14,009 nt of DNA. Origin: a virus (taxonomy: Duplodnaviria > Heunggongvirae > Uroviricota > Caudoviricetes). Below, in pieces: positions 1 through 12,821 of the stretch (positions are counted from its first letter, which is position 1; the number at the start of each line of letters is the position of its first letter). Under the pieces are notes generated by a model. That model was given only the letters and a program-made list of their open reading frames with translations, ran no database searches and was not told the DNA's origin. The stretch covers positions 1 to 14,009 of the IMG/VR virus record IMGVR_UViG_2660237951_000011. One strand, written 5' to 3'. The position numbers were made by a program, and so were the translations under genes.

Positions 1-102
1 GCGCTCAGCTGAGCGCTTCACATCACCATGTTTGCTCTGCACCAGCCTGGCAATTTCACGGCTGGACATTGTCACAACACCCTTAGCGGTTAACTGATTC
101 AT
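1..102 (-). CDS. Rha-family phage regulatory protein / antirepressor, N-terminal fragment (gene continues past window start)
   Basis: Minus-strand ATG at 102..100 preceded by GGAG (7-nt spacing). Translation MNQLTAKGVVTMSSREIARLVQSKHGDVKRSAER matches the N-terminal pattern I recall for Rha/ORF6N-type proteins (T-x-SS-x-EIA..L....H..V.R). Only 34 codons visible. Confidence 0.45.
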   Translation of the reverse strand, partial: MNQLTAKGVVTMSSREIARLVQSKHGDVKRSAER

Positions 103-116
103 GCTATTTCTCCATA

Positions 117-2054
117 TCAGGCGGCTGCACCCGCCTTTTGATTTGCACATAATTCAGGAAGATTTGCTTCTACCAGCGCACGAGCGAACGGCGGCGGTAC
201 TGCGTTACCACAGCGCGCTACCTGCTTGTCTTTGGCGTAACGATTGCCGCGATAGTCCTGATCGATAACGTAGCCGTCAGGGAAGCCCTGCGCCTTATAA
301 AGCTCATGCGGTTGCAGCATGCGCATTCCGATATCGACGATCTGGTACTTAACCCCCTCGATCGTCACCAGCCATTCATCCTCGCTATCACCGCAGTAGG
401 TTTCGAGGAATGTCCGGACCTCGCCAACGTGCTGGCCACCAGCGGTAATCGTCGGCATAGGTGTATCCATGGTCTGACCGTCGCGGCAGGTTCCGCGCAG
501 CTTCACCAGGTGCGACGCAACTACCGCGTGGTGATCAACAGTAGTGACTGAGTGGGCAGGCTCATCCATACCAACACCCGGCCCCGTGTAATTCCCACCA
601 TAGTGCTTCGCCAGGAACGCGCTCACCGTTGCAAACTTATTACCACCAGCAGTGACCGTGCCGAGCGGGTTATTCAGTTGAAGAACACGCGGTTCTTGCC
701 CTGGGCGTTCGCCGTACCCCATCTGGATCAGTGTTGGAGTTACCAGCTGCGACTTACCGCCACCACCTGCAGTAATCGTCGCACTCGGTTCGTCAGCCCT
801 GTGCCCAACACTGGCTCCAAACTGGCGGGCGATGACCGGCGCAACCACGCACGCGCGGGACTGCTTGAGGATTGTATGAGCGGGTTTATCCAGCGGGCGC
901 GGCTTTGCCTGGTACTCACTGCCGCCATTGCCAGCCAGGAACGGTGTCAGGGCGGCCTCAACTACGCCAAGCGCATGCCCATTCCCGCCCGGGCGCGCCG
1001 ACGTACCAGCGGTGACAGTTGGTACCGGCTCGGTCACTGGCTGCCCGGTGGCCCCGGTGCGGAATTTAGTAAGATGCGGTACCGCCAGTGCGTAGCCATG
1101 CTTTTTAGTGATGGTCTGCAATGGCTCTAACAACGATTGCCCGCGGAAACAGTCATAACCTCCTTTCGTCGTGGTGTGGTTACACTTCACGATGAAAGGT
1201 GATGCGCTTTCGATAACAAAGCGCTGGATGCCGCGCGCGATACGTTTGAGCGTATTTTCCGCCAGCGGCTTTTTGCGGTCGAAGATGGACCGGGCCGGGA
1301 TATTCCAGTCAATGCACTCCGCCGCGGTACGCCATGGCGCCAGCTTGCCGCTTTGTACTTCCAGTGATTTTGGATCCCCATGAGTCGCTTCAGGCCAATG
1401 AATCTTGCGGCCGTCACAGCGCGTGACCATGAAGAAACGCTTTCTGATCGTCGGCGCGCCGTAGTCACATGCGCGCAGCTCCCGATAATCAACCTCATAA
1501 CCAAGCCCGGCGATCAGCTGTTGCGCCTGCTGGCCGTGCGGCTCAATGGCAAGGAATTCACAAACCTCAGCCAGCGCAGGGTGATTCGCCGCGATCCCCG
1601 TCGACAGCATGCCGACAAATGCCTCGAATGTTTCGCCAGCACGCTCAGGATCTGGGCGTAATTCTTCATCCAGCAGCGGGCCCCATGTCTTAAACTCTTC
1701 GACGTTCTCCAGCATCATGACGCGGGGACGTACTGCCAGCGCCCAGCGCAGGACAATCCACGCCAGCCCGCGAATCTCTTTCTTAACCGGCTTAGCGCCC
1801 TTCGCCTTGGAAAAGTGGCGGCAGTCAGGGCTAAACCAGGCCAGACCGACAGGTTTACCGCTGGTGGCTGCGCTTGGGTCAACGTCAAACACCGACTCGC
1901 AATAATGCAGCGTGTCAGGGTGATTCGTCTTATGCATCGCAATAGCGTTTTCGTCGTGGTTGATAGCGATATCCACGCTACGCCCGATCGCCAGTTCAAT
2001 GCCGGTACTCGCGCCGCCGCCACCAGCAAAGTTATCAACGATAATTTCACGCAT
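117..2054 (-). CDS. DNA (cytosine-5)-methyltransferase, 645 aa, with greatly expanded variable (target-recognition) region
   Basis: Start moved to internal ATG at 2054 (MREIIVDNF), which overlaps the upstream gene's stop. C5-MTase motifs read in order: I FAGGGGASTG; IV SPDCRHFSKAKG (P-C catalytic Cys); VI MMLENVEEF; VIII ACDYGAPTIRKRFFMV; IX MLQPHELYKAQGFPDGY; X GNAVPPPFARAL. About 370 aa lie between motifs VIII and IX. Confidence 0.85.
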   Translation of the reverse strand: MREIIVDNFAGGGGASTGIELAIGRSVDIAINHDENAIAMHKTNHPDTLHYCESVFDVDPSAATSGKPVGLAWFSPDCRHFSKAKGAKPVKKEIRGLAWIVLRWALAVRPRVMMLENVEEFKTWGPLLDEELRPDPERAGETFEAFVGMLSTGIAANHPALAEVCEFLAIEPHGQQAQQLIAGLGYEVDYRELRACDYGAPTIRKRFFMVTRCDGRKIHWPEATHGDPKSLEVQSGKLAPWRTAAECIDWNIPARSIFDRKKPLAENTLKRIARGIQRFVIESASPFIVKCNHTTTKGGYDCFRGQSLLEPLQTITKKHGYALAVPHLTKFRTGATGQPVTEPVPTVTAGTSARPGGNGHALGVVEAALTPFLAGNGGSEYQAKPRPLDKPAHTILKQSRACVVAPVIARQFGASVGHRADEPSATITAGGGGKSQLVTPTLIQMGYGERPGQEPRVLQLNNPLGTVTAGGNKFATVSAFLAKHYGGNYTGPGVGMDEPAHSVTTVDHHAVVASHLVKLRGTCRDGQTMDTPMPTITAGGQHVGEVRTFLETYCGDSEDEWLVTIEGVKYQIVDIGMRMLQPHELYKAQGFPDGYVIDQDYRGNRYAKDKQVARCGNAVPPPFARALVEANLPELCANQKAGAAA

Positions 2055-3381
2055 TGACGGCCCCCTGCATGCTGTTGAAGAGACCACCAGCGGTCGTGAT
2101 AATTTCACTCGTCGGCATACGTTCGAGCCACAGCTGGTTGATATTGGCTTTCAGCTTGTTCTGCTGCGAAACAGGTAGAGCGTCAGCCCCTTCAATCTGG
2201 TTAAACACCAGTCCAACCTCAAGAGGCCAAACGCGCGATTCGTTTAACGCCTTGTCCTTTGATTCCTGCGTCTCACGGACATGGGCGCGGATCCCCCGAA
2301 TATTTGACCATTTGGCTTTATCCAGGCTTTCCATGGTCGCGATGAATTCACTGTGGTTAATGCCGTATTCTTTCGCAGACTCAACGGCAACCGTGCGTAA
2401 CCGCTCTGACATGTCTTGTTTCACGTCATCGCTATCAAAGGGCAATGTTTCCAGCCATGCATTAACACCCACCAGGATGCTCTCGCTGATCAGCTTTTTC
2501 GCTCTGTCGATCGTCAGCGGTGAAACATTGGTAAATTCAGGGTTTTCCAGAGAGTCGGCAGCCCAGGTATGACCAAACTTTGACTCGCTGAAGGTGTACT
2601 CGTCTTTCTTGCCGAACGCCGCGACAACACAGGCCCAAGCCTCTACACCGCTGGTTTCCAGAATGGCTTTTTGGGTTAATGGCAGTTCTGCCTCTGATTT
2701 CTCCGGCACTACCTCAGCGTCCAGCTCCGGCGCCGCATCAGTTTGCGTTCTTCCCACGGCAAATTGGGCCAGCGACATCGCAGCACGGCCTTTGGCCTCC
2801 AGGTCGGTGCGGTTGATGTAACTGAAACGCTCACCCCGCCATGTTTTGTCGAAGACCACGATAGCGCCAGCAAAAAATGCGCTGGTGGGCTGCTGCTTTT
2901 CGTCTTTCGGCACGAACCATGTAGGAAGATCGAAACCAATTCGGCCACGGATGAATGTGACGTGATCTGCCTCTACCGGCCACCACGTTTCACTCGTCGC
3001 AGACTTAATGAGAAAAACGTACCGACCACCCTTTTCTCGCATGGCCATAGCGTGGTTAATGATGTGGGTCATTCCGGTAACGGCCTGCTTGTCGTGGTAC
3101 TGAGAGCGGCTGTAAGGCGGGTTGCCAAACCCGGCACCACCGAGTTCTGCCAGCCGCTCTGACCAATCCTGCATCAGGGCATTATCTTCAGCCGTGTACC
3201 ATGCTGGGCACTTCGCGTTGCTGTCGTCGGCAAAAAGGTCCAACACCAGAGGGCCGAACATCGCATTGATCCCCCAAAACAACAGATCCGGAGTGCGCCA
3301 TTGATCACCGACCTCTTTCAACTCGTGTGCTGGTTTTGAACGGAGTTCAGCTAGTGCACGGCAGTATTTATTTTCCATCAT
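2047..3381 (-). CDS. Phage Dam-family N6-adenine DNA methyltransferase with ~250-aa C-terminal extension of unknown function
   Basis: N-terminal region DQWRTPDLLFW...LDLFADDSNAKCPAWYT...GFGNPPYSRS carries the NPPY amino-methyltransferase motif in a phage-Dam-like context. Start ATG overlaps the upstream stop (ATGA at 3378-3381). Residues ~200-444 show no motif I recognise. Confidence 0.8.
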   Translation of the reverse strand: MMENKYCRALAELRSKPAHELKEVGDQWRTPDLLFWGINAMFGPLVLDLFADDSNAKCPAWYTAEDNALMQDWSERLAELGGAGFGNPPYSRSQYHDKQAVTGMTHIINHAMAMREKGGRYVFLIKSATSETWWPVEADHVTFIRGRIGFDLPTWFVPKDEKQQPTSAFFAGAIVVFDKTWRGERFSYINRTDLEAKGRAAMSLAQFAVGRTQTDAAPELDAEVVPEKSEAELPLTQKAILETSGVEAWACVVAAFGKKDEYTFSESKFGHTWAADSLENPEFTNVSPLTIDRAKKLISESILVGVNAWLETLPFDSDDVKQDMSERLRTVAVESAKEYGINHSEFIATMESLDKAKWSNIRGIRAHVRETQESKDKALNESRVWPLEVGLVFNQIEGADALPVSQQNKLKANINQLWLERMPTSEIITTAGGLFNSMQGAVNA

Positions 3382-4232
3382 CCTCTGAACCCCTCTGGAA
3401 TCTTGCTATCAACCGGACCGAACTTCATCGGGTCATGTTTCTTTTCACCCCAGCTGTCACGCGGTGGCCGCCCCTTCTTGTCCCAGCGGATCCCGCTTTG
3501 CAGATAACCTTCAAATTTTTTCGGACCGAAGAGCGTTTCAGGACGCATGTACTGGTACTGCACGTCATTGCCGTTCCAGTGCTCATGCTTAAGGTCGATC
3601 ACCAGCTGTAAGTCGCTAACGGTGTAACCTTCACGCAGACGAGCACGGATGTTTTCCAGAGAAGTTTTTGATTTTTGGTATCGTGAGCCACTAACCAGGT
3701 TCAGATGATTCAGAACCAGGATGGCGTTATCGGTGATCATCACTTCAGGGTCTGGTTGCGGCGCAACCGGACAAGAAGGTTTTTTAACTGATGGATCAGT
3801 AGTTGTATTTACTGACGGATCCCCCCCAGATTCTGACGGGTGAAAACCGCCTTTTTCATCGTTTTTTGATGCCTCAGATTTTGACGCGTCGGTTTTTGAG
3901 GCATCAGATTTTGATGCGTCAGAATCTGACAGGTGAGAAAAGGCAGCAGCCTGCAATTTAGCAACATTGAGCTGGTAAACGTTCGATGCATTTCGGTTGC
4001 CTTTACGGCGCTGCTGGCGGGTTAACCAACCATCTTTTTCCAGCTGAGATATGGCTGTACGAACCGTGCTCTCACCAGCACCAATCTGGCGCGCGATGGT
4101 AGCGATGGAAGGCCAGCTAACCCCTTCATCACTGCTGAAGTCTGCCAGACGCGCCATGATGGCAACGCTGGATAGCTTCATGCCAGAAGCGGCACAAGCA
4201 TCCCAAACGTAACCCGTTAATTTAGTGCTCAT
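3378..4232 (-). CDS. Phage replication initiator (lambda O-like): N-terminal winged-HTH, low-complexity SDASK-repeat linker, conserved phage replication C-terminal domain
   Basis: 284-aa ORF with RBS AAGGA 5 nt upstream of the ATG at 4232. N-terminus (SVAIMARLADFSSDEGVSWPSIATIARQIGAGESTVRTAISQLEKDGWL) is HTH-like. Central linker DSDASKSDASKTDASKSEASKND is encoded by tandem 15-bp DNA repeats. C-terminal region resembles phage replication-protein C-terminal domains. The family assignment is from memory, not a search. Confidence 0.65.
   Translation of the reverse strand: MSTKLTGYVWDACAASGMKLSSVAIMARLADFSSDEGVSWPSIATIARQIGAGESTVRTAISQLEKDGWLTRQQRRKGNRNASNVYQLNVAKLQAAAFSHLSDSDASKSDASKTDASKSEASKNDEKGGFHPSESGGDPSVNTTTDPSVKKPSCPVAPQPDPEVMITDNAILVLNHLNLVSGSRYQKSKTSLENIRARLREGYTVSDLQLVIDLKHEHWNGNDVQYQYMRPETLFGPKKFEGYLQSGIRWDKKGRPPRDSWGEKKHDPMKFGPVDSKIPEGFRG
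3864..3938. repeat. Four to five tandem 15-bp repeats (consensus TTTTGAnGCnTCAGA) inside the O-like gene; candidate origin iterons
   Basis: Direct reading gives ttttgatgcctcaga / ttttgacgcgtcggt / ttttgaggcatcaga / ttttgatgcgtcaga / atctgacaggtgaga. Each has a near-palindromic 10-bp core TGAnGCnTCA. Position mirrors lambda ori, which sits in the O linker. Confidence 0.5.
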
Positions 4233-4401
4233 GGTCGTCCTTTAACTCTGTAAACTTGCGCTTGAATTGTTCGAGCGGGCTGAAACATTCGTGGTCATAT
4301 CCATCCCGCAGGTAGATAACTCGTTGAGTCTCTGGCTCCCACCTGATAACCCGAACGGGGATCCCTCTGTGGTCTTTGAACCTTCGGTTAACTTCGCGCA
4401 T
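4222..4401 (-). CDS. Hypothetical small protein (59 aa), below the ORF-track length cutoff
   Basis: Minus-strand ATG at 4401 with AGGAAGG about 10 nt upstream; stop overlaps the O-like start by 11 nt. Translation MREVNRRFKDHRGIPVRVIRWEPETQRVIYLRDGYDHECFSPLEQFKRKFTELKDDHEH is protein-like in composition. Several rare Arg codons and competition with an overlapping 126-aa frame lower confidence. Confidence 0.3.
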   Translation of the reverse strand: MREVNRRFKDHRGIPVRVIRWEPETQRVIYLRDGYDHECFSPLEQFKRKFTELKDDHEH

Positions 4402-4573
4402 AAGCGTTTCGCCTTCCTGTAGTAAACCCCCACAATTGCGACCGCCCGACTGTGGTTACATGGCACCCAGCGGTTTGCTATTCTGCGTTCATACCGAAAC
4501 AACGGAGCGCCCGGTACCGGGATCATCCTGAGTTGCGGCAAACGGTTAAAAGCCGTTAAACTGGTCATGCGGA

Positions 4574-5122
4574 TTACTTCTCCATACAAGATTTGTCTGC
4601 CACGACGCCCGGAGCTGCACACTCGCGGGCGTCACCTTTTTCCGGCGCACAAAACACACGGAAAAGCAGCGTCAAATGTTCCTGCCACTTAGCCATCACC
4701 TGATAGCTGTTCTCTTCAATCTGGGCGCGTTCCTGAGCATCAATAACGCCGTCAGCGGTAGCTTTGCGAACGTATTGCGAATGCCTGCCGATCCACTCCA
4801 CTGACTCCATAAGACGCTGGTTGATGTCACCGTTCTCTATTTCTTCAACGTCAGCCAATGGCACGAAAACACCGTTCGAGTGACGTGCAATAGCGTTCGC
4901 TATGTGGTTTGAACCACCAGCACGTTGAAGCACCATCGCCCAACCGAGCGGGAAGATCTGATCGCCATCGGTACGCAGCCGGTTAAACAGCGCGTTCTCG
5001 GTCACACCCAACCACTCAGCAGCTTCTGAATATCCGCCAGGCAGCTCGGTGATCGTTTTTTTGATTGCGGCCACCAGCCAGGCTGGCTGCTTATCTACTT
5101 TCCATTCAGGTTCTATACCCAC
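4574..5122 (-). CDS. Putative CII-like early regulatory protein, 182 aa, GTG start
   Basis: ORF-track start (GTG at 5206) would overlap cro by 62 nt. An in-frame GTG at 5122 sits 8 nt after a strong AAGGGAGG placed right after the cro stop, so I take 5122 as the start. Sits at the cII position (after cro, before replication genes). Contains an HTH-like stretch (GGYSEAAEWLGVTENALFNRL). Family call is tentative. Confidence 0.5.
   Translation of the reverse strand: MGIEPEWKVDKQPAWLVAAIKKTITELPGGYSEAAEWLGVTENALFNRLRTDGDQIFPLGWAMVLQRAGGSNHIANAIARHSNGVFVPLADVEEIENGDINQRLMESVEWIGRHSQYVRKATADGVIDAQERAQIEENSYQVMAKWQEHLTLLFRVFCAPEKGDARECAAPGVVADKSCMEK
4604..4641 (+). terminator. Intrinsic terminator on + strand, antisense to the 3' end of the CII-like gene (OOP-like arrangement)
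   Basis: 8-bp stem 4604-4611 / 4626-4633 with 7 G:C pairs, 14-nt loop, then ACC and TTTTT (4637-4641). Confidence 0.5.
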
Positions 5123-5144
5123 GGCTAGGTCCTCCCTTCTGTGG

Positions 5145-5360
5145 TTATTTCTGATCGCTTGGCGATGTATTCTTGCCATAACGTTCTGGGTTAAATTCCA
5201 GTTCACCAGCAGTTCGATACGCAGCTTCAGCAGCTCGTCCTTTTGGGATTAAGCGTCCGGGGCGGTTACGCCACTGGTAAACGGCCTCACTGGTGATGCC
5301 AAAAAATTCGGCAACTTTTTCAGTGCTGCCGAAATGTTGTTCAATCTCGTCGGTTGTCAT
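5145..5360 (-). CDS. cro: Cro-like HTH repressor (71 aa)
   Basis: Small basic HTH protein (FGSTEKVAEFFGITSEAVYQWRN) transcribed divergently from the CI repressor gene. AGGAGG lies 4 nt upstream of the ATG. A sigma70-like promoter TTGACC-17-TAATAT is on the minus strand at 5416..5388. Confidence 0.7.
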   Translation of the reverse strand: MTTDEIEQHFGSTEKVAEFFGITSEAVYQWRNRPGRLIPKGRAAEAAYRTAGELEFNPERYGKNTSPSDQK

Positions 5361-5373
5361 GAAGCCTCCTTAG

Positions 5374-5437
5374 CTAAGTTTGGTTAGATATTAATAACCA
5401 ATCTAACTTTGGTCAATAAAAACTAAGATTACTTAGT
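5374..5437. promoter_or_regulatory. OR-like operator/promoter region between cro and cI
   Basis: Three related boxes: CTAAGTTTGGTTAG (5374-5387), CTAACTTTGGTCAA (5403-5416) and perfect palindrome ACTAAGATTACTTAGT (5422-5437). The first two overlap the start site and -35 of the cro promoter. Confidence 0.6.
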
Positions 5438-5459
5438 CTTTTTTAAACTTGGTGCTTTC

Positions 5460-6086
5460 ATGGAAACGGTTGGTCAGCGCATTAAAGCCCTACGTAGGGT
5501 TACAAGAACCTCTCAAAAAGAACTGGGTAAGTTCTGCGGGGTTAGTGACGTAGCGGTGGGTTATTGGGAAAAGGATGTGAATATCCCAAACGGTGAATCG
5601 CTGGTTAAGCTGGCGAAATTCTTTAACACATCAATAGATTACATTCTTTACGGCACTGAATTTGAAGGCACCCTCATAACTAAAATGAGGCGTGTCCCGG
5701 TGATTTCATGGGTTCAAGCTGGGCAGTTCACGGAATGTAAAGCCGCTGATTTGTTCAGTGATGTCGATAAATGGGTTGAAACATCACTTCGCATTGGGGA
5801 TAACTCGTTCGCTTTAGAGGTCAAAGGGGATTCAATGACCAATCCAAATGGCCTCCCAACAATCCCTGAAGGGGCAACCGTTATTGTTGATCCAGATGCC
5901 GAACCCCTTCATGGCAAGATTGTGGTTGCGCGTCTTGATGGCACTAATGAAGCGACTGTTAAAAAACTTGTCATTGATGGCCCACAAAAATTTTTAGTGC
6001 CACTAAATCCTCGCTACCCCAACATCCCGATCAATGGTAACTGCCTCATTATTGGCGTTGTTAAAGGCGTTCAGTACGAACTCTAA
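5460..6086 (+). CDS. cI: CI-type prophage repressor, N-terminal HTH plus C-terminal S24 (LexA-like) autocleaving peptidase domain
   Basis: N-terminal HTH (TSQKELGKFCGVSDVAVGYWE). Ala-Gly cleavage site in VQAGQF. Ser nucleophile in GDSM and the Lys of the dyad in ATVKKL. Divergent from cro across an operator region. Confidence 0.9.
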   Translation: METVGQRIKALRRVTRTSQKELGKFCGVSDVAVGYWEKDVNIPNGESLVKLAKFFNTSIDYILYGTEFEGTLITKMRRVPVISWVQAGQFTECKAADLFSDVDKWVETSLRIGDNSFALEVKGDSMTNPNGLPTIPEGATVIVDPDAEPLHGKIVVARLDGTNEATVKKLVIDGPQKFLVPLNPRYPNIPINGNCLIIGVVKGVQYEL

Positions 6087-6104
6087 TCCCTTCCCACTCT
6101 TCCT

Positions 6105-6169
6105 CTAAGCATCAAGCTAAGTTTAGTTTGATGTTTTCACTTGACCAGAAAACTAAGTTAAGTTAGATT
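6105..6169 (+). promoter_or_regulatory. OL/pL-like promoter and operators downstream of cI
   Basis: TTGACC (6141-6146), 17-bp spacer, TAGATT (6164-6169). The spacer and -10 overlap the near-palindrome ACTAAGTTAAGTTAGAT. Further CTAAG boxes at 6105-6109 and 6117-6130 belong to the same half-site family as the OR boxes. Confidence 0.5.
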
Positions 6170-6528
6170 TTTTTCTGTCGGCACCAAACCACCGCGCCTG
6201 ATGTGGTTAAAAGCAGGCCAAAGCAATAAGACGTGTTCCCTGTTCTGGCTGCTCACTTTCCCCTTGAGGGTGACAGCCAGCTTTTTAAGGGCACAACAGG
6301 CGAGAGCATTGCTGATTATCGGACTGCGTGAGACGCGACGCGGTAAAGCAGGTAAACAGTGCTCTCACCGTTGTGGTAATGCGGCTCTGCGCACGTGACG
6401 AGGCCAACAAGTTTTTATTTCAACTTTTGAAATGAATACGTTTCTTGTGGTGTAGCGTCGCCGGTTCTGGCCGGTCCGGCAGGTGGAGGCACCACCGCCA
6501 CAACAACATCATTGCTGTGTGTAGTCTT

Positions 6529-6557
6529 TGCCCATCACATCGGTGGGCACCTTTTTT
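6529..6557 (+). terminator. Intrinsic terminator-like hairpin inside the leader upstream of the first accessory gene
   Basis: 8-bp stem TGCCCATC / GGTGGGCA (one G:U pair), 5-nt loop, then CC and TTTTTT (6552-6557). Confidence 0.45.
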
Positions 6558-6713
6558 ACACAAGAGACAAGGGCATCACCGGGCGACGGGCTCATTCCCC
6601 AATCCACCCGGGCAAGAGGATAGCGATTGCAGTCGCCGACAAATGCAGGTGCCCTTCTCTGTTGTGTATGGAGAAAGTTCGGCGGTGGCAGCCGCCATAA
6701 CGAGGGTAAAACC

Positions 6714-7085
6714 ATGAGTAATGACCGCATGACCGTAGTGCCCGACTTTTTGGGCGAGCTGGATGCCGGTGTGTTCATGAACAAAATCGCGGCAGCACTT
6801 AACACCACCGCGCTTGGCGTTCTGAACAACGGCAACAAAGGCAAAGTAGTCCTCACCTTTGATTTTGAGCGTATGGGTAATTCCGTTGAAGAGAAGCGCG
6901 TCAAGATCAAGCACAAGCTGAACTACAGCACCCCAACTCCGCGCGGTAAAGCCTCCGAAGAGGACACAACCGAAACCCCTATGTGGGTTAACAAAGGCGG
7001 GAAGCTAACCATCCTCCAGGAGGATCAGGGGCAACTGTTCGGGATCACCGGCGCGGTGGACGGAAAGCTTAAAGCGGCTCAGTGA
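6714..7085 (+). CDS. Hypothetical protein (123 aa), first gene of the accessory operon; YfdP-like by position
   Basis: ATG at 6714 with GAGGG 7 nt upstream. The ORF-track start at 6627 has no RBS. Typical codon usage. YfdP assignment is by gene order only, not sequence recall. Confidence 0.6.
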   Translation: MSNDRMTVVPDFLGELDAGVFMNKIAAALNTTALGVLNNGNKGKVVLTFDFERMGNSVEEKRVKIKHKLNYSTPTPRGKASEEDTTETPMWVNKGGKLTILQEDQGQLFGITGAVDGKLKAAQ

Positions 7086-7141
7086 TCCGCAACAACAAAC
7101 TCACTGATACCACTTTGATCATCAGTTAATAAGGAATTTTT

Positions 7142-7969
7142 ATGTCTCAGTTAGACAGCGGCACCTTCAAGCAGGTCAAAGACCTGGTCCTTTCCGGTTA
7201 TCACCTGAATGATATTCATGGCCTGGCTTGCCCGACCGCATTACTGCCAGAGGGTACTGGCGTTGAAAGCCTTGAGCGCTTTTCTCTGGAACGTTTCCGC
7301 TTTCGTGGCGCAATGACCACAACCAGTATTGACGACTTCGCACGTTATTCTAAAGGTTATGCCAGCGCCAGCGAGCCAGCTCGTTGCTTCATTGACGCTG
7401 ACAACATGACCGCCCGTTCAGTGTTCAACATCGGCACCCTGGATAACCCCGGTCACGCCGATAACGTTGCTTCAATCACTCTGAAGAAAACCGCCCCGTT
7501 TCGCGCGCTACTACAGATCGATGGTCAGCGTCTGAAACAAAAGCAAATCGCTGAATGGCTGGAAGACTGGAGTGATTACCTGCTGGCGTTTGACGCTGAT
7601 GGTAAGACGATGGAGATTTCTCAGGCGGCTCAGGCCGTGCGTCGTATCACTATCCAACAAGCAACCCAGCAGGATCATGAAACTGGTGATTTCGCTGGTA
7701 AAAAATCACTCATGCAAAGCGTCGAAGCAAGCAGCAAAGACGTAATGCCGGTAGCGTTCGAATTCAAATGTGTGCCGTATGAAGGTCTGGGCGAACGCCG
7801 CTTTAGCTTGCGTAACAGCCTGCTGACCAGCGATGAACCCTGCTTTGTTCTGCGCATCGTCCAACTTGAAGCCCAGGAAGAAGCAATCGCCAACGAATTC
7901 CGCGATTTACTGATCAGCAAGTTCGACGGTGAATCAGTGGAAACTTTCATCGGTAACTTTAAAGCCTAA
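7142..7969 (+). CDS. Hypothetical protein (275 aa); YfdQ/DUF2303-like by position
   Basis: AGGA 7 nt upstream of ATG. No recognisable catalytic motif. Lies immediately upstream of the YfdR-like gene, as in the yfdP-yfdQ-yfdR order I recall for the CPS-53/KplE1 prophage of E. coli K-12. Confidence 0.6.
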   Translation: MSQLDSGTFKQVKDLVLSGYHLNDIHGLACPTALLPEGTGVESLERFSLERFRFRGAMTTTSIDDFARYSKGYASASEPARCFIDADNMTARSVFNIGTLDNPGHADNVASITLKKTAPFRALLQIDGQRLKQKQIAEWLEDWSDYLLAFDADGKTMEISQAAQAVRRITIQQATQQDHETGDFAGKKSLMQSVEASSKDVMPVAFEFKCVPYEGLGERRFSLRNSLLTSDEPCFVLRIVQLEAQEEAIANEFRDLLISKFDGESVETFIGNFKA

Positions 7970-7981
7970 TTGCTCTGCATT

Positions 7982-8008
7982 AAATCCCCGGCGCCGCGGG
8001 GATTTATT
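7982..8008 (+). terminator. Hairpin / possible terminator or attenuator after the YfdQ-like gene
   Basis: Inverted repeat AAATCCCCG-gcgccg-CGGGGATTT (9-bp stem), followed by ATT. Located 13 nt after the stop codon. Confidence 0.4.
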
Positions 8009-8097
8009 GAAGCGTAATTCCATTAATTATCGCCATCCGGCGAGGGATTCGTGCAACCAAAATCTGCGCGGTGCAGCGCGCCAATATGGAGAAAACC

Positions 8098-8637
8098 ATG
8101 AGCTACATTCAGACATTATCCGGCAAACACTTTAATTACCTCGATATCCAACAGGACGATATCGTCATCGAGGATATTGCTACTGCGCTGTCTCATATCT
8201 GCCGTTTTGCTGGGCATCTTCCTGAGTTTTACAGCGTCGGCCAGCATAGCGTTTTAACCAGCCATCTCGTTCCGCAGGAGTTTGCCTTAGAAGCACTGCT
8301 TCATGATGCCGCCGAAGCCTACCTGCAAGATATTCCCTCACCGCTTAAGCGCCTGTTACCGGATTACCAGGTGATCGAAGCTCGCGTAGACGCTGCTATT
8401 CGCCAGAAATTTGGCCTACCGACGGAGCAACACCCAACAGTGAAATATGCCGATCTGGTGATGCTCGCCAGCGAACGCCGCGATTTTGAGATTGACGAAG
8501 GTTCCGTGTGGCCATGCCTCGATGGCGTTGTCCCGACGGACCTATTCATCATCAATCCAGTTCGTCCAGGCCAGTCATACGGCATGTTCATAAATCGCTT
8601 TAATGAGTTGATGGAGCAGCGTCAATGCGCCGCATGA
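8098..8637 (+). CDS. yfdR: HD-domain phosphohydrolase, YfdR-like 5'-deoxynucleotidase
   Basis: HD motif visible: H-x(n)-HD in LSHICRFAGH...YSVGQHSVLTS...EALLHDAAEAYLQDIP. Strong end-to-end resemblance to my recollection of E. coli YfdR. Start at 8098 (GGAG 6 nt upstream), not the track start at 8071. Confidence 0.7.
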   Translation: MSYIQTLSGKHFNYLDIQQDDIVIEDIATALSHICRFAGHLPEFYSVGQHSVLTSHLVPQEFALEALLHDAAEAYLQDIPSPLKRLLPDYQVIEARVDAAIRQKFGLPTEQHPTVKYADLVMLASERRDFEIDEGSVWPCLDGVVPTDLFIINPVRPGQSYGMFINRFNELMEQRQCAA

Positions 8638-8801
8638 AGGTAAAAGAACTCGTGGCGGAGGCGTTTGCCTCCGTGGCTGAATTGCCACCAAAGCATGCAT
8701 CGCTTATGCGCGAAGTCGCTACCAGGCTTGAAGCTACGTTCGCAGCATTAACCGAATCATTGGCGCAACTGGAACAGGAACGTAAAGGTAAAACGCAATG
8801 A
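8634..8801 (+). CDS. Hypothetical small protein (55 aa), below ORF-track cutoff
   Basis: ATG overlaps the yfdR-like stop (ATGA at 8634-8637) and its own stop overlaps the next start (ATGA at 8798-8801). Translation MKVKELVAEAFASVAELPPKHASLMREVATRLEATFAALTESLAQLEQERKGKTQ is helical-looking. Confidence 0.45.
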   Translation: MKVKELVAEAFASVAELPPKHASLMREVATRLEATFAALTESLAQLEQERKGKTQ

Positions 8802-9052
8802 CCGTATTTGAATATCTCCAGGGCCACCCGAACGCCACCAGCGGTGAAATCGCAAGGGCGATGGGTAAAAAGACGCCAGCCGTAGCCAGCGCACTATCTC
8901 AGCTTTATGCAACAGGGAGAATTGTTAAGTCTGGCGCACGCGGTGGGATACCGACATACCGCGTCAATGATCTGCCGTTTGGATGCAGCAATAACTTAAC
9001 GCTGATATTTAACCAGCTTCTGCGAAACGTCCGCAAAGGAGCAGCCCAATGA
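8798..9052 (+). CDS. Hypothetical small protein, possible winged-helix DNA-binding fold (84 aa)
   Basis: Translationally coupled on both sides. The stretch SGEIARAMGKKTPAVASALSQLYATGRIV looks HTH-like. Confidence 0.55.
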   Translation: MTVFEYLQGHPNATSGEIARAMGKKTPAVASALSQLYATGRIVKSGARGGIPTYRVNDLPFGCSNNLTLIFNQLLRNVRKGAAQ

Positions 9053-9366
9053 GCAAATTTACGGCATTACCAGTAGAACGCGACCAATACGGCTACTGGA
9101 CTCACCCCGTCTATGAGCAATTTTGCGATGGTCGTGAATTTATCTCACCTGATGAGTTCAACGCCTGGCTGGATAAAAACGGCCTCGAATGGACGGTAGT
9201 TTACCGGGATGAAGAAGACATCGATCCTGAAGTTGATGGTTACGATATTTCAGCCTGGCAGCCAGAATCGCCAGCCGGTGAAGGTTGGTTTGTCGGTTCA
9301 ATTCACAACACCGAAGATGGCGCGGTATGCATCTGGTTACGTAACGTTGAAGGCGGTGCAGCATGA
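9049..9366 (+). CDS. Hypothetical protein (105 aa)
   Basis: ATGA overlaps at both ends. Acidic, Trp-rich. No family recognised. Confidence 0.6.
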   Translation: MSKFTALPVERDQYGYWTHPVYEQFCDGREFISPDEFNAWLDKNGLEWTVVYRDEEDIDPEVDGYDISAWQPESPAGEGWFVGSIHNTEDGAVCIWLRNVEGGAA

Positions 9367-10121
9367 CAGTCCATACACTGAAGCAATGCCGCCCGGACCA
9401 AGAAGAAACCGAGTATTTCTGGAAGTTGTTTCATGCGGCACAACGGAATGACGCTCGCTGGCACGGTAGTGAAATCAGCATTATCGCCGATGAACTATCC
9501 CGGACGGATTTAGATCGTAATCAAAAACTGTTTCTTCTCCGTGCCTGGCAAGTGCTGGTAGACGACAAAGGTGGATTCGGGCGCTTGATGGGTGCCTTTG
9601 ATACTTACGTCTACAACATGCAGGACCCTGATGATGACTGCGTAGCCTGGAAGCCTGAACTGGCTAAGCTGCTACAGGATGGCAATCTGTTTGATGTTGT
9701 GCTGACGGCATATCAGGAGGCCTGCCATGAGGGGATCGTTAATTGGGAGGCAGCGGTATCTCTTTCTGAGGAAAACGTAGAACTGAAGCGCAAACTCTAC
9801 GCAGCAGAGAATCAAATAGCAGAACTGGAGGCGCGGACGTTCAATCCTGCAATTCTAGATGTGATAGCAGAGCGCCAGCGGCAGAAAGCCGTTGAGGGCT
9901 GGACGTCTGAGCATGACGACAAATACGGAAAATCGCAGTTGTTGTGGGCATCCTCATGCTACGTCCTGAACACCATCCAGCCGTTTAACCGCATTCCGAT
10001 GGACTGGCCGTGGGCACCCGAATGGTGGAAGCCGACAGGCCCGCGCCGTGACCTGGTGAAAGCTGGCGCGCTTATTCTGGCTGAAATTGAACGCATAGAC
10101 CGCCAGGAGGCAGCACAATGA
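9363..10121 (+). CDS. Hypothetical protein with central coiled-coil (252 aa); possibly Ea22-related
   Basis: ATGA coupling at both ends. Coiled-coil segment EENVELKRKLYAAENQIAELEAR. Trp-rich C-terminus. Confidence 0.6.
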   Translation: MTVHTLKQCRPDQEETEYFWKLFHAAQRNDARWHGSEISIIADELSRTDLDRNQKLFLLRAWQVLVDDKGGFGRLMGAFDTYVYNMQDPDDDCVAWKPELAKLLQDGNLFDVVLTAYQEACHEGIVNWEAAVSLSEENVELKRKLYAAENQIAELEARTFNPAILDVIAERQRQKAVEGWTSEHDDKYGKSQLLWASSCYVLNTIQPFNRIPMDWPWAPEWWKPTGPRRDLVKAGALILAEIERIDRQEAAQ

Positions 10122-10771
10122 GCAACATCAACAAACAGGCGCTGCGTGAAACGGCGGATGCAGCAAACAAAGCCTCGTGGGGCCGTTGGGAATCATATCA
10201 TCCACACAAAGGCGCGCGGGGCCACGAGGTCAAGGTAGGGGTAAAAGCAATCGCCCAGCACTGCCTCAAGGTTGATGCAGAATTCATCGCCGCATCCAAC
10301 CCCGCCACTGTGCTGGCGCTGCTGGATGAGCTGGAAACTAAAGACAAGCGTAATGCGGAGCTGGAAGACCTTCTTGAAGCTGAAATTAAGTCATGGATGC
10401 AACGGTACGATAGTGCAAATAACCGAAGAGAAGCCGCAGAGAAGCGCAACGCAAAATTACAAAGCGAGAATGCATACATCCGCAACCGGTTCAAAGAACT
10501 GGACCTATTAATCGGGAAAAACATTCTGGTCATGCAGGCTGCGATTATCGAATGGCAGGCAACTGGCGACGCTAAGAGCGGACTGGCATGGATTTATAAC
10601 ACACTGTTTGGCCCAGGCGAATTGCCGGACGAATCTGAGAAAGATGCTCAGGCCTACTTTGACCGCAAATATGCACCGATTGACGAAGAGCTTATGGCGC
10701 TTCACAAGTGGTTTTGGGAACAAAGTGAAGCCGAACGTGCCGCCGCTGGCATTGGCGTGAAGGGGGAGTGA
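10118..10771 (+). CDS. Ead/Ea22-like protein (217 aa)
   Basis: N-terminus MSNINKQALRE... and the ATVLALLDELE segment match my recollection of lambda Ea22 (MSEINSQALRE..., ...VLELLDERE). Central coiled-coil. AGGAGG RBS. Assignment from memory, not a search. Confidence 0.6.
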   Translation: MSNINKQALRETADAANKASWGRWESYHPHKGARGHEVKVGVKAIAQHCLKVDAEFIAASNPATVLALLDELETKDKRNAELEDLLEAEIKSWMQRYDSANNRREAAEKRNAKLQSENAYIRNRFKELDLLIGKNILVMQAAIIEWQATGDAKSGLAWIYNTLFGPGELPDESEKDAQAYFDRKYAPIDEELMALHKWFWEQSEAERAAAGIGVKGE

Positions 10772-10772
10772 G

Positions 10773-11045
10773 ATGAAAAAATACCTCAGTAATTTAGCGA
10801 GCATGTTGCAGGGTATTGCAGGTGTAATTTCAGACGGCGAACGAGTGCAAACTGAGTGTCCTCCGCATTTAAAATCTGCGCTACTTGAGGCGTCTCATGC
10901 GCTGGATGGTCAATCAGTCAGGGTTAATTACCCACCAAATGGGAAACCGGAAATCGTAAATGCTCGCGGCAAGCATCGGCAGTTAACTTTCCGGGAACGG
11001 ATTGCTATTCGCCTTCTCGGCGGCAGAACGGAGATTAGGCCATGA
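10773..11045 (+). CDS. Hypothetical protein (90 aa)
   Basis: GGGGGAG RBS 4 nt upstream. Stop overlaps the next start (ATGA at 11042-11045). Confidence 0.55.
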   Translation: MKKYLSNLASMLQGIAGVISDGERVQTECPPHLKSALLEASHALDGQSVRVNYPPNGKPEIVNARGKHRQLTFRERIAIRLLGGRTEIRP

Positions 11046-11578
11046 CAACTAACCACCCGGCGCACGGTCCTGTATCAATAGATCGCCTGCACCAGATACG
11101 CGAAGTACTCAGCAAAGCAGCAGCACAAAGCGACGGCGGTAATCTCGGCTACGCAATGGCTGATGCTGTCAAGGTGATTGATAAGGCTATTGCTGCGTTT
11201 AATGCGGAGCTTTATGTTCCTACCGTTCAGTGCTGGTCATGCAGAGAGGTTATTGAAGTTTCCGCAGTAGGTGACTGTGATGGTTATTGCCCGAAATGCG
11301 ACTCGCCAATTGATCTCGATGAAGAGCCATACGATGCCGCCATACTTCAGGCTGGCAACTCTCCGGTGATTCCGGATGGTTGGAAACTGGTACCGATTGT
11401 GCCGACGGAGAAGATGGTTATCGAAGGCTTCGAGTCGGAGCCAGACGAATTCTTCAGTAAATCTGAAGTGTGGGAGGCGTATCAGAAAATGAGTGGCTGC
11501 GAACAAGCGGCGCATCGGGCCAAGTTATGCTGGGCAGCGATGATCTCAGCAGCACCACAACAGGAGGTGAAGCTGTGA
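11042..11578 (+). CDS. Hypothetical zinc-ribbon protein (178 aa)
   Basis: Two CxxC pairs, CWSCREV...CPKCDSP, spaced like a zinc ribbon. Translationally coupled on both sides. Confidence 0.6.
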   Translation: MTTNHPAHGPVSIDRLHQIREVLSKAAAQSDGGNLGYAMADAVKVIDKAIAAFNAELYVPTVQCWSCREVIEVSAVGDCDGYCPKCDSPIDLDEEPYDAAILQAGNSPVIPDGWKLVPIVPTEKMVIEGFESEPDEFFSKSEVWEAYQKMSGCEQAAHRAKLCWAAMISAAPQQEVKL

Positions 11579-11814
11579 CTAAATCAGAATTCCTCCAGAA
11601 GGTAGCGGTGCTGGCCGGTGAATGCCATAAGTTGGCCTGTGAGCTGGACATAGGCGATGAACGAATAGAGATGTTCGAGATTTATGAAGTGCTTCGCCGA
11701 ATCCAGCGGAGTGGTGCAGCCGGTGAAATGCTGGCTGCAACAAACCCTTTACTATCCCCTGGAATACCTGAGGACACTGAATGGGTAAATTTCCATAAAG
11801 AGGATCATGCCTGA
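11575..11814 (+). CDS. Hypothetical protein (79 aa), GTG start
   Basis: GTG at 11575 overlaps the upstream stop (GTGA) and is preceded by AGGAGG at 7-nt spacing. The ORF-track start at 11470 lies inside the upstream gene and has no RBS. Confidence 0.5.
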   Translation: MTKSEFLQKVAVLAGECHKLACELDIGDERIEMFEIYEVLRRIQRSGAAGEMLAATNPLLSPGIPEDTEWVNFHKEDHA

Positions 11815-11990
11815 TGCCTAAGACAATCATCATAACCTTAGAAATTGATGTTCCGGAACACGCTACCGATAGCGACATATCAGATTGGGTAGACGTCGAG
11901 TACGGGCAGTGTGGTGGACAAAAATTAGATAACCCCTGCCGTGGCGATGCCACCGAAGTAATAAACCATTCATGGAAATTTGAGAGCTAA
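11814..11990 (+). CDS. Hypothetical small protein (58 aa), below ORF-track cutoff
   Basis: ATG overlaps the upstream stop (TGATG). Translation MPKTIIITLEIDVPEHATDSDISDWVDVEYGQCGGQKLDNPCRGDATEVINHSWKFES. Fills an otherwise unexplained 180-bp gap in a tightly packed operon. Confidence 0.45.
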   Translation: MPKTIIITLEIDVPEHATDSDISDWVDVEYGQCGGQKLDNPCRGDATEVINHSWKFES

Positions 11991-11992
11991 AG

Positions 11993-12565
11993 ATGAACGA
12001 CTTAATGATTGACCTCGAATCAATGGGGAAAAAGCCAAACGCGCCGATCGTCTCAGTTGGTGCTGTCTTTTTTAACCCTCAAACAGGTGAACTTGGCCAA
12101 GAATTCTATACAGCCGTCTCGCTTGAAAGCTCAATGGATCAAGGCGCGGTACCGGATGGAGATACGATTCTTTGGTGGCTAAAACAAAGCCCTGAAGCGC
12201 GCTCAGCTATCTGCGTTGATGATGCGATGCCTATCACTGATGCACTGTCGGAACTTAGCCATTTCATTCACCGGCATGCATATAATCTCAAATACATGAA
12301 GGTCTGGGGTAACGGGGCCACCTTTGACAATGTGATTTTGCGCGGAGCTTACGAACGCGCCGGACGCATTTGCCCGTGGGAATTTTGGAACGATCATGAT
12401 GTACGAACGATTGTTACCCTCGGTCGCAGTGTTGGTTTCGATCCGAAGCGTGACATGCCTTTCATTGGCGATGTTCACAACGCCCTGGCTGATGCGCGCC
12501 ATCAGGCAAAATATGTGTCAGCAATTTGGCAGAAAATTATCCCTGCCACCAGCACCAACGAGTAA
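11993..12565 (+). CDS. DnaQ-like (DEDDh) 3'-5' exonuclease
   Basis: N-terminal MIDLESMG (Asp-x-Glu) and C-terminal HNALADARH (His/Asp) match the acidic-residue pattern of DEDDh exonucleases. Lies directly before xis-int. Confidence 0.7.
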   Translation: MNDLMIDLESMGKKPNAPIVSVGAVFFNPQTGELGQEFYTAVSLESSMDQGAVPDGDTILWWLKQSPEARSAICVDDAMPITDALSELSHFIHRHAYNLKYMKVWGNGATFDNVILRGAYERAGRICPWEFWNDHDVRTIVTLGRSVGFDPKRDMPFIGDVHNALADARHQAKYVSAIWQKIIPATSTNE

Positions 12566-12609
12566 ACCACACAGCCCGGGTGCAGCCGGGCTTTATGGAG
12601 AAGGAAACC

Positions 12610-12819
12610 ATGGCAAAGCTAATGAAAGCGAGTCTCTGGAGTAAACGCGAATTTACCAAAGACTCCATTCCTGACAACCGTACAATAAAACGTTGGGTCG
12701 AAAACGGATTACTCATGGGAAGGATTGTAGATGGTTCAGTTTTTGTCTATGAAACCGAAAAGTGGGGAGTTGACTCAATTGTTAATCAGGCGGTACGTCA
12801 GTTAATAATTGAGGGTTGA
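12610..12819 (+). CDS. xis: Excisionase-like recombination directionality factor (69 aa)
   Basis: Start moved to ATG at 12610 (GGAGAAGGAAA RBS). Pattern W-x(n)-P-x(n)-RWVENGLL...G...V.E parallels lambda Xis. Stop lies 2 nt before the integrase ATG. Confidence 0.6.
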   Translation: MAKLMKASLWSKREFTKDSIPDNRTIKRWVENGLLMGRIVDGSVFVYETEKWGVDSIVNQAVRQLIIEG

Positions 12820-12821
12820 CC

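Follow-up and report, generated by a model that had tools for sequence, protein, structure and literature searches.

A non-coding, multi-module leader RNA in the early-left operon of a lambdoid prophage: a probable DicF-type small-RNA precursor with an RprA-like seed

The stretch considered here is the leader that follows the pL-like promoter in positions 1-14,009 of the Caudoviricetes record IMGVR_UViG_2660237951_000011 (called the window below). It occupies positions 6171-6713, up to the first protein-coding gene of the operon, a yfdP-like gene. This leader is non-coding, contains conserved and covarying RNA structures, shares 26 identical nucleotides with the small RNA RprA, and has a layout like that of the dicF locus. 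The explanation that we favour, as probable and well short of certain, is a non-coding multi-module RNA that serves as a DicF-type small-RNA precursor and attenuator with an RprA-like seed. The host operon is best read as the repressor-controlled early-left operon of a lambdoid prophage of the SfV/ST64B/e14/LLS type.

A gene for a cI-like repressor with Peptidase_S24 and HTH domains lies before the leader (5460-6086, + strand), preceded by a P22-type Cro gene (5145-5360, - strand) and accompanied, in the immunity region of the window, by a cII-like gene of the YmfL family on the - strand. Downstream of the yfdP-like gene there is a DUF2303/yfdQ gene (7142-7969, + strand). Promoter-like sites occur in the region at chance level, with 2 found against 1.9 expected. 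An operator-like palindrome, AACTAAGNNNNCTTAGTT (at most 3 mismatches), is located inside the pL-like promoter at 6151-6168 and has further copies at 5372 and 5421, both in the cro/cI divergent region; only 0.3 such sites would be expected, and 3 were reached in 0 of 200 shuffles. As this palindrome sits inside pL and recurs in the cro/cI region, a repressor-controlled promoter of the pL type is well supported, with a transcription start that would lie near 6176.

An earlier note, made from the sequence alone, had described a pL-like promoter at 6141-6169, which the scan recovers together with its internal operator-like palindrome, and a first gene with a proper ribosome-binding site at 6714, which is the yfdP-like one. 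The roughly 540 nt that it had seen in between, with no convincing open reading frame (ORF) and with a terminator at 6529-6557, indeed hold no conserved ORF, and the scan finds the same intrinsic terminator (hairpin 6529-6549 followed by T6 at 6552-6557). Zero N-like ORFs occur between pL and yfdP, as had been stated. One of its GC-rich hairpins (6482-6496) is invariant in 13 aligned relatives and paired in the consensus fold; the other (6681-6696) retains its hairpin reading in relatives with a different stem sequence. The general view of a structured leader in a pL-type operon is likewise upheld, and to it we can add a terminator at 6245-6286, the near-identity to RprA and a conserved region on the pR arm. 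The features of the leader and its borders are as follows.

6141-6169, + strand: pL-like sigma-70 promoter, TTGACC-17-TAGATT (promoter scan; operator overlap)
6187-6208, + strand: 5′ hairpin of unit 1, AACCAC...GUGGUU (predicted fold; conserved sequence)
6209-6244, + strand: A-rich single-stranded linker of unit 1, AAAAGCAGGCCAAAGCAAUAAGACGUGUUCCCUGUU (predicted fold)
6245-6286, + strand: terminator T1, a 15-bp bulged hairpin (6245-6280) followed by CUUUUU (predicted folds)
6292-6375, + strand: helix D1, about 20 bp, CACAACAGGCGAGAGC... paired with ...GCUCUCACCGUUGUG (predicted fold)
6370-6504, + strand: M, a tRNA-like cloverleaf (RNAalifold, 13 relatives)
6505-6557, + strand: trailer of 53 nt (small RNA 2, short form), AACAUCAUUGCUGUGUGUAGUCUUU and then terminator T2 (sequence; RprA match)
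6550-6677, + strand: D2 (block D), a multi-branch RNA (covariation, covariance model, fold)
6681-6696, + strand: small hairpin GGCGGUGGCAGCCGCC between D2 and the ribosome-binding site of yfdP (fold; relatives)
6702-6706 and 6714-7085, + strand: ribosome-binding site GAGGG and yfdP-like gene (ATG at 6714), the first protein-coding gene of the operon

Coding potential was assessed in a full-leader alignment of 8 close homologues with 86-94% identity, namely phages LLS and Eeyore, 3 IMG/VR contigs, 2 sequences from Enterobacter and 1 from Buttiauxella. The candidate ORFs pointed out before (6201-6398, 6445-6717 and 6512-6700) do exist, lack Shine-Dalgarno sequences and are not conserved: the first has an in-frame TGA at codon 12 in 8/8 homologues, and the other two are frameshifted in 7/8, the indels among these leaders being of 1, 2, 4 and 7 nt. 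Variable sites are spread evenly over the codon positions of the three ORFs (13/10/12, 11/15/16 and 14/14/9), and neither Pfam nor NCBIfam gave any match to the candidate leader ORFs. We conclude that the stretch is non-coding. The opposite view, that one small ORF is translated, can invoke the mere existence of ORFs of 62-90 codons and the RefSeq annotation that places ymfH over the homologous sequence of e14. However, stops or frameshifts in nearly all close relatives, the absence of a codon-position bias, zero family matches and ORFs with no Shine-Dalgarno sequence leave that view already largely refuted, and we give it almost no credence. In e14, the leader homologue is annotated as the coding sequence ymfH, followed by xisE-intE; ymfH (locus L124, 3079-3390) spans the M cloverleaf, an RprA-like seed UGCUGUGUGUAGUCUU, the terminator and D2. 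It is probably a mis-annotated RNA locus.

The trailer contains the identity to RprA. Positions 6511-6536 of the window coincide in 26 of 26 nt with nucleotides 60-85 of RprA, the RprA sequence used for this being a 100% match to the rprA annotated in 5,422 E. coli genomes. The shared stretch comprises the single-stranded part adjacent to the terminator and the 5′ half of the terminator stem, with a similar 8-bp terminator and a U-run after it; T2, formed by the hairpin at 6529-6549 and U6 at 6552-6557, ends the trailer. An AU-rich hairpin with a loop starting in UCAAC is found upstream in the window, as is stem-loop 1 in RprA. The Rfam model of RprA (RF00034) matches end to end (window 6421-6558, model 1-108) with 41.5 bits and E-values of 0.0016 over 901 nt searched and 0.0004 over 231 nt. 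The conserved 3′ single-stranded stretch, UUGCUGUGUGUAGUCUUU, and the intrinsic terminator of the family are present in the window, and the central seed of RprA (about nt 31-60) is replaced by a 42-nt insert of low posterior probability that belongs to M.

RprA itself is a core-genome, Hfq-dependent small RNA of enterobacteria, whereas the element of the window would be made from a phage operon and lacks the ydiK-ydiL synteny. It is located inside a prophage pL leader rather than in a stand-alone chromosomal gene with an Rcs-dependent promoter of its own, and positions 6170-6510 gave no promoter-like site in the promoter scan. The regions of RprA that pair with csgD and rpoS lie upstream of nucleotide 60, and Papenfort et al. 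in 2015 reportedly described the 3′ region as a second seed, used for ricI. The 53-nt product is expected to bind Hfq, since it carries the terminator module of RprA. No antisense match to the trailer seed was found elsewhere in the window. A CACAACA-type motif at 6499-6508 resembles the GcvB-target mimic of AgvB.

The second line of evidence is the similarity in layout to the Qin-type dicF locus. There, a helix (CCAUAAC..AAGCGCACGG paired with CCGUGCGCUU..GGUUGUGG) is followed by an M cloverleaf (GGUUGUGGCAAUCCGCG...CCCCGCUGCAAC) of a type common to many members of the leader family, then by the 53-nt DicF with its terminator (GGCGGUAUCAG...CUGCCGCC-UUUUU), and finally by a long structure, closed by a helix of 15 bp that begins a few bases past the U-run, and by dicB. 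The 53-nt form of DicF has a 5′ end made by RNase E and a 3′ end made by termination, the 190-nt form owes its 5′ end to RNase III, and the 72-nt form has a 3′ end produced by RNase III in read-through transcripts (10.1101/2023.04.14.536235; PMC9438474). The window repeats the order of helix, M, 53-nt seed plus terminator, long helix and gene, and its trailer of 53 nt and M plus trailer of 188 nt compare with the 53 and 190 nt of DicF. D1 takes the place before M that the helix has in Qin, and D2 starts inside the U-tract, a position close to that of the downstream helix in Qin. Both cassettes belong to a repressor-controlled early-left operon of a lambdoid prophage.

The two loci also differ. 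The terminator hairpin of the window is of the RprA type, although the DicF-type terminator GGCGGUAYCAG...CCGCC occurs in 84 of 110 family members, and the DicF seed UUUCUGGUGACGUUU is absent, with AACAUCAUUGCUGUGUGUAGUCUUU as the trailer seed instead; because this seed is RprA-like and not that of DicF, the targets of the window small RNA should differ from ftsZ and manX. The cassette of the window comes directly after pL without preceding ydfABC genes, it begins with an additional small-RNA unit that has a terminator to itself, and its D2 belongs to another sequence family than the downstream helix of Qin, where the D2 covariance model, R1, found no D2-like element (locus L191). Relative to the DicF cassette, what is best filed as new in the window is the RprA-like seed with its terminator, the extra first unit and the distinct downstream helix.

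Other small RNAs share parts of this design. The consensus of STnc100 (RF02076) shows the same cloverleaf-plus-trailer architecture, and this model scores 39.5 bits in the SfV leader and 29.2 bits in e14 over about 200 nt, with a match in these SfV/e14-type relatives that takes in the closing helix, the CCGGGAGGCACCCGG arm, the single-stranded seed and the terminator; the e14 seed plus terminator also scores 28.5 bits with DicF (RF00039). The gathering thresholds of Rfam are 70 bits for RprA (RF00034), 48 for DicF, 47 for STnc100 and 56 for AgvB. The reported places of STnc100 and PasD are close to genes of the late region (Q, LpxR, Fels-1 genes), not in a pL leader; the Storz-lab preprint on Pas small RNAs relates the two and mentions neither RprA, DicF nor yfdP (10.64898/2026.05.13.724894). 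AgvB and AsxR, anti-sRNAs of Stx-type prophages, are likewise short RNAs in which the seed varies and the terminator scaffold is conserved (PMC4104026), and StxS, from prophages of that type as well, arises through early termination of a phage operon transcript (PMC7547250), but these RNAs sit at the PR′ moron site or the tR′ site and use another scaffold. Membership in the AgvB/AsxR families (RF02702/RF02703) was rejected, given 14.9 bits for AgvB against a threshold of 56 and a different location (PMC4104026). Our literature search returned no paper on this leader, on a phage RprA-like RNA or on ymfH as an RNA.

The leader is widespread, and its pre-terminator stretch is variable. More than 119 loci were found in viral contigs when a conserved block of 22 nt was used as the query, and species genomes, scanned with the YfdP protein as anchor, contributed 65 yfdP loci, spread over Citrobacter, Klebsiella, Enterobacter, Kosakonia, Mixta, Erwinia, Yersinia, Proteus and further genera. 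The window shares its leader with phages LLS, Eeyore and Flotzy, and SfV has a diverged one between its cI region and orf32 (yfdP), of a type that 2,785 of the 5,426 complete E. coli genomes carry, including e14 of K-12. The 110 unique family members were tallied by seed and terminator: the RprA-like seed GCTGTGTGTAGTC occurs in 53 (and in a degenerate form in 5 more), the seed CCACTGCTTT in 40 and other sequences in the remainder, while the terminators are GGCGG...CCGCC in 84 and RprA-type in 10. The RprA-like seed is thus retained on two different terminator backgrounds, and further seeds are found on the same scaffold in other genera. As the seeds vary across the family and the genera, the pre-terminator stretch acts like a seed that can be exchanged while the scaffold is conserved. 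The YfdP of Citrobacter sp. Cu233 (NZ_JAOWIF010000031.1) is 100% identical to that of the window, and the cassette upstream of it is a different one, with the RprA-like seed on a DicF-type terminator with a nested insert; this locus shows cassette exchange beside a conserved gene. Nested inserts occupy the hairpin loop of many family terminators, with motifs ...CUUCAACC...AGGRG...GAAGAUAAUGUUCU... and an internal AUG that is not conserved; they are seen in Cu233 (L125, about 2760-2836) and in loci L160, L182, L140, L128, L131, L157 and L178, and not in the window.

As a whole, the leader RNA (6176-6720) folds better than its shuffled versions (z = -4.48, 0/100). The sequence of unit 1, ACCACCGNGCCTGA..GTGGT, is conserved in LLS, Eeyore, SfV and e14; the A-rich linker after it would be a candidate seed or Hfq-binding region of a small RNA 1, and T1 is predicted from its fold to end a primary small RNA of about 110 nt. 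At the T1 position, the relatives L079, L083, L091 and L094 have another stem sequence with the same T-run after it, and unit 1 is joined directly to block D in some relatives. D1 has a fold energy of -43.6 kcal/mol (z = -2.37) and shares part of its 3′ strand with the 5′ acceptor strand of M; by analogy with Qin, D1 is a predicted RNase III site for the 5′ end of a species of about 190 nt.

M is built from an 8-bp acceptor-like stem (GUUGUGGU/GCCACAAC), a D-like arm (UGCG/CGCA), a GACG/CGUC arm bearing an insert of about 57 nt, an extra arm (GCCGG/CCGGC) and a T-like arm, GGUGG-AGGCA-CCACC, which is the 6482-6496 hairpin mentioned above. Alternative M types occur in relatives, of which type c sits upstream of DicF. 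The idea of M as a tRNA was rejected: the resemblance is one of cloverleaf topology only, with no call of an anticodon arm or canonical T-loop, and ARAGORN called no tRNA in the window. In two Phytobacter prophages (L174 1186-1264 and L176 2722-2800), a real tRNA-Ile(AAU) takes the M position, about 20 nt before the seed, with an acceptor that reads GUUGCGG/CCGCAAC in the locus sequence, a compensating change. A Yersinia prophage (L155 2667-2800) has a near-tRNA with a long insert at the same place, which reads as a D-arm GCUC...GAGC and a T-arm GUGGGUUCGAAUCCCAC. Klebsiella phage SopranoGao (61 kb, Lastavirus, not lambdoid) carries 2 unannotated M-type modules near its genome end (L190 482-845 and 920-1010), one of them 79% identical to window 6357-6504, as well as a further unannotated tRNA-like sequence. 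Copies of the CACAAC and GUUGUG motifs mark the ends of D1, M and D2 (6292-6297, 6370-6376, 6498-6504, 6558-6563 and 6662-6667), so that GUUGUGG at 6370 can pair either upstream, in D1, or downstream, closing M. The same competition is present at Qin dicF, and it may act as a switch in folding or processing.

D2 is conserved as a genuine RNA structure. The 5′ strand of its P1 helix (6552-6578) starts in the U-tract of T2 and pairs with GGUGCCCUUCUCUGUUGUGUAUGGAGAAA (6650-6676) over about 25 bp, and D2 ends 37 nt before yfdP. The consensus, built from 53 distinct sequences, has 36 pairs, with P1 as a 22-pair helix whose 3′ strand ends in a conserved GGAGAAA and which encloses P2 (CCGGG/CCCGG, with an inner GGG/CCC hairpin) and a variable stem P3. 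Pairing holds in 97.7% of the cells of these pairs and falls to 43-55% if the partner columns are shifted by 1-3; 9 pairs show compensatory changes, and the covariation score was reached in 0 of 500 shuffles. A cross-genus alignment has compensatory changes in 15 of 27 pairs and retains P1 even in Proteus, Yersinia and Serratia, and the covariance model places D2 about 40 nt upstream of yfdP in some 35 of the 65 species loci. In the window, the + strand scores 106 bits and the - strand 34, with many G-U pairs on the + strand only, from which it follows that the RNA is read in the direction of pL. Its fold has z = -3.74, and R1 found no second D2-like element in the window. The gene after D2 can be yfdP, an rdgC-like gene or, in e14, xisE, so that D2 is no gene-specific translational device; by analogy, we regard it as a predicted RNase III substrate and 5′-untranslated-region (5′-UTR) element. 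The small hairpin that follows has its equivalent, GACCUUGCAGGGUC, at the same place in leaders of the SfV type, with another stem sequence. The covariation analysis in relatives that the earlier note had proposed finds covarying leader structures, strongly so in D2 and with 2 pairs in M.

The processing steps in this phage would follow those of DicF by analogy, the match in layout being itself an observation. Transcription from pL, with the repressor off or leaky, would give an RNA of about 110 nt that stops at T1, and read-through of T1 would give D1, M and the 53-nt trailer stopping at T2. A cut by RNase III in D1 would then release the M plus trailer species of about 190 nt, and a cut by RNase E just 3′ of M would free the 53-nt form. 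In transcripts that read through T2, RNase III would cut D2, leaving the small RNA with another possible 3′ end and the yfdP mRNA with a fixed 5′ end. The 53-nt RNA would bind Hfq and then either pair with the RNAs that this portion of RprA recognises or act as a competitor of RprA, and T1 and T2 would hold down the expression of yfdP and of the early genes after it. Among the options offered by the earlier note, a stable small RNA with its end at 6557 is the one that the comparison supports best, through the RprA look-alike, the Hfq-type terminator and the DicF-type cassette.

Several points weigh against this explanation. Small-RNA expression, processing and Hfq binding are, for this leader, predictions only. 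The RprA match, at 41.5 bits, stays below its gathering threshold of 70, as do all the other Rfam scores below theirs; at these thresholds zero families are found in the window, where DicF RF00039 gave no match at E ≤ 10 and STnc100 was not detected by the Rfam search. RprA pairs with hdeD through a seed in the stem-loop that starts at nucleotide 31, a region different from the shared part at nt 60-85 (PMC5861431). The efficiency of T2 is uncertain, because a 2-nt CC spacer separates its stem from the U-run. The covariation in M amounts to 2 pairs only among 13 aligned sequences, and the RNase III inference for D2 rests on analogy, that of a long helix starting from a U-tract, since D2 is not homologous in sequence to the structure downstream of dicF. 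Finally, the polymerase must pass through T1 and T2 to reach yfdP and the genes beyond, for which partial leakiness of the terminators is the simplest reading.

That passage is the starting point of another explanation, in which the nascent leader acts on the polymerase as a processive antiterminator RNA in cis and so carries it past T1, T2 and later terminators without N. Read-through at the put sites of HK022 depends on the beta′ zinc-binding domain of RNA polymerase, and King et al. in 2011 reportedly dealt with put-like RNAs. With zero N-like ORFs after pL, N-independent early transcription is plausible, and the authors of the LLS genome, who left the leader undescribed, likewise noted no N homologue and speculated on put (PMC12315714). 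The leader is highly structured from the transcription start on, terminators inside an operon require some mechanism of read-through, and HK022 put is also a nascent structured RNA just after pL in a phage without N. However, put is about 70 nt long, has two stems and lacks the terminator or seed design. Homology was rejected after aligning HK022 putL and putR with the candidate elements, which had only GGAUGA in common; the sole 8-mer shared with put, CAGGATGA, lies on the pR arm, at about chance level, and is not conserved in relatives. As there is no fit in Rfam at threshold either, the put-like cis-antiterminator put forward in the earlier note does not find support. The best-conserved structures, M and D2, are moreover located after the very terminators whose suppression would be required of them, the first gene that follows D2 varies and D2 itself looks like a site of RNA processing, and many relatives with the same leader have a separate conserved element after pL, better suited to the role and missing in the window. 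We consider antitermination by this leader rather improbable. A simpler alternative is a plain 5′-UTR riboregulator, where the structures, chiefly D2 and the 6681-6696 hairpin, would govern only how stable the mRNA of the first gene is or how it is translated, and the terminated RNAs would be by-products devoid of a function in trans. Both structures are directly upstream of the ribosome-binding site, and D2 keeps a fixed distance from yfdP in many genera, yet D2 also precedes rdgC-like genes and the xisE of e14. This account, moreover, hardly explains the 26-nt identity to RprA, nor a pre-terminator stretch that acts like a swappable seed, one such seed being DicF, a proven trans-acting small RNA; we hold it to be unlikely.

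It could also be argued that the conservation is one of DNA, with the conserved blocks and the GTTGTGG/CCACAAC inverted repeats as junctions of lambdoid mosaic recombination devoid of RNA function. The variable cassettes between near-invariant flanks fit this proposal, and so does the acceptor-like stem of M, which is nearly invariant and, as it hardly varies, for the most part gives no evidence of covariation. Against it stand the compensatory changes and strand-specific G-U pairs of D2, the compensatory changes in terminators, the Phytobacter tRNA-Ile at the M position with its compensating acceptor (GTTGCGG/CCGCAAC), and the homologous Qin locus, which yields mapped RNAs. A purely DNA-level role therefore appears very improbable to us, and the DicF-type precursor with an RprA-like seed is kept as the preferred reading.

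The element found after pL in many relatives, which we call the A element, consists of ACAGGCAGGACGCCCACGAAGUAGCCGCC, a covarying hairpin and GGAUGAUUCG. The compensatory variants of its hairpin are CCUGG/CCAGG, CCGGU/ACCGG, CCCCA/UGGGG and CCGAU/AUCGG. It is located at 1650-1715 in SfV (L003), at 2280-2345 in e14 (L124) and at about 2420-2490 in Eeyore (L002), and it occurs as well, unannotated, in ST64B, mEp237, ZF40 and phages of Yersinia and Pantoea. It is absent from the window and, by reading of the aligned sequences, from LLS, and a blastn search with it retrieved neither HK639 nor HK022. The A element is a candidate antiterminator or leader RNA, and a better candidate than the leader of the window, with membership in the put family unproven. 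As for the pR arm, the earlier statement that it leaves no room for tR1/nutR is weakened by a conserved structured intergenic region of 170 nt on that arm. This region (4402-4573, minus strand, between the cII-like/YmfL gene and a DUF4222 gene) is conserved across the phage family down to about 70% identity, with invariant blocks and hairpins with paired substitutions, CCACAG...UUGUGG among them, and it may serve the rightward operon as a regulatory RNA, whether terminator, nut-like or put-like.

A broader proposal, which we put forward tentatively and do not hold as likely, is that the lambdoid early-left leaders of Enterobacterales form a modular small-RNA platform, with DicF as one of its outputs and with a commonest sampled seed that copies the 3′ module of RprA, so that a phage RprA mimic takes over or blocks part of the RprA regulon, or displaces RprA from Hfq. 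If true, the platform would consist of a helix for RNase III, a scaffold resembling a tRNA and a seed plus terminator open to exchange; the mimic would be made upon induction or by leaky expression, for example from e14 in K-12; and the affected parts of the regulon would be envelope stress, biofilm and conjugation control. These cassettes may also have a common origin with the 3′ half of RprA. DicF, the STnc100-like RNAs and this leader would then form one widespread modular family of prophage small RNAs, and ymfH of K-12 would be re-read as an RNA locus. For lambdoid phages without N, the leader offers a processing model of early-left expression that combines termination, RNase III and RNase E, and a phage look-alike of RprA would be a route through which the induction or leakiness of a prophage could rewire the post-transcriptional control of its host.

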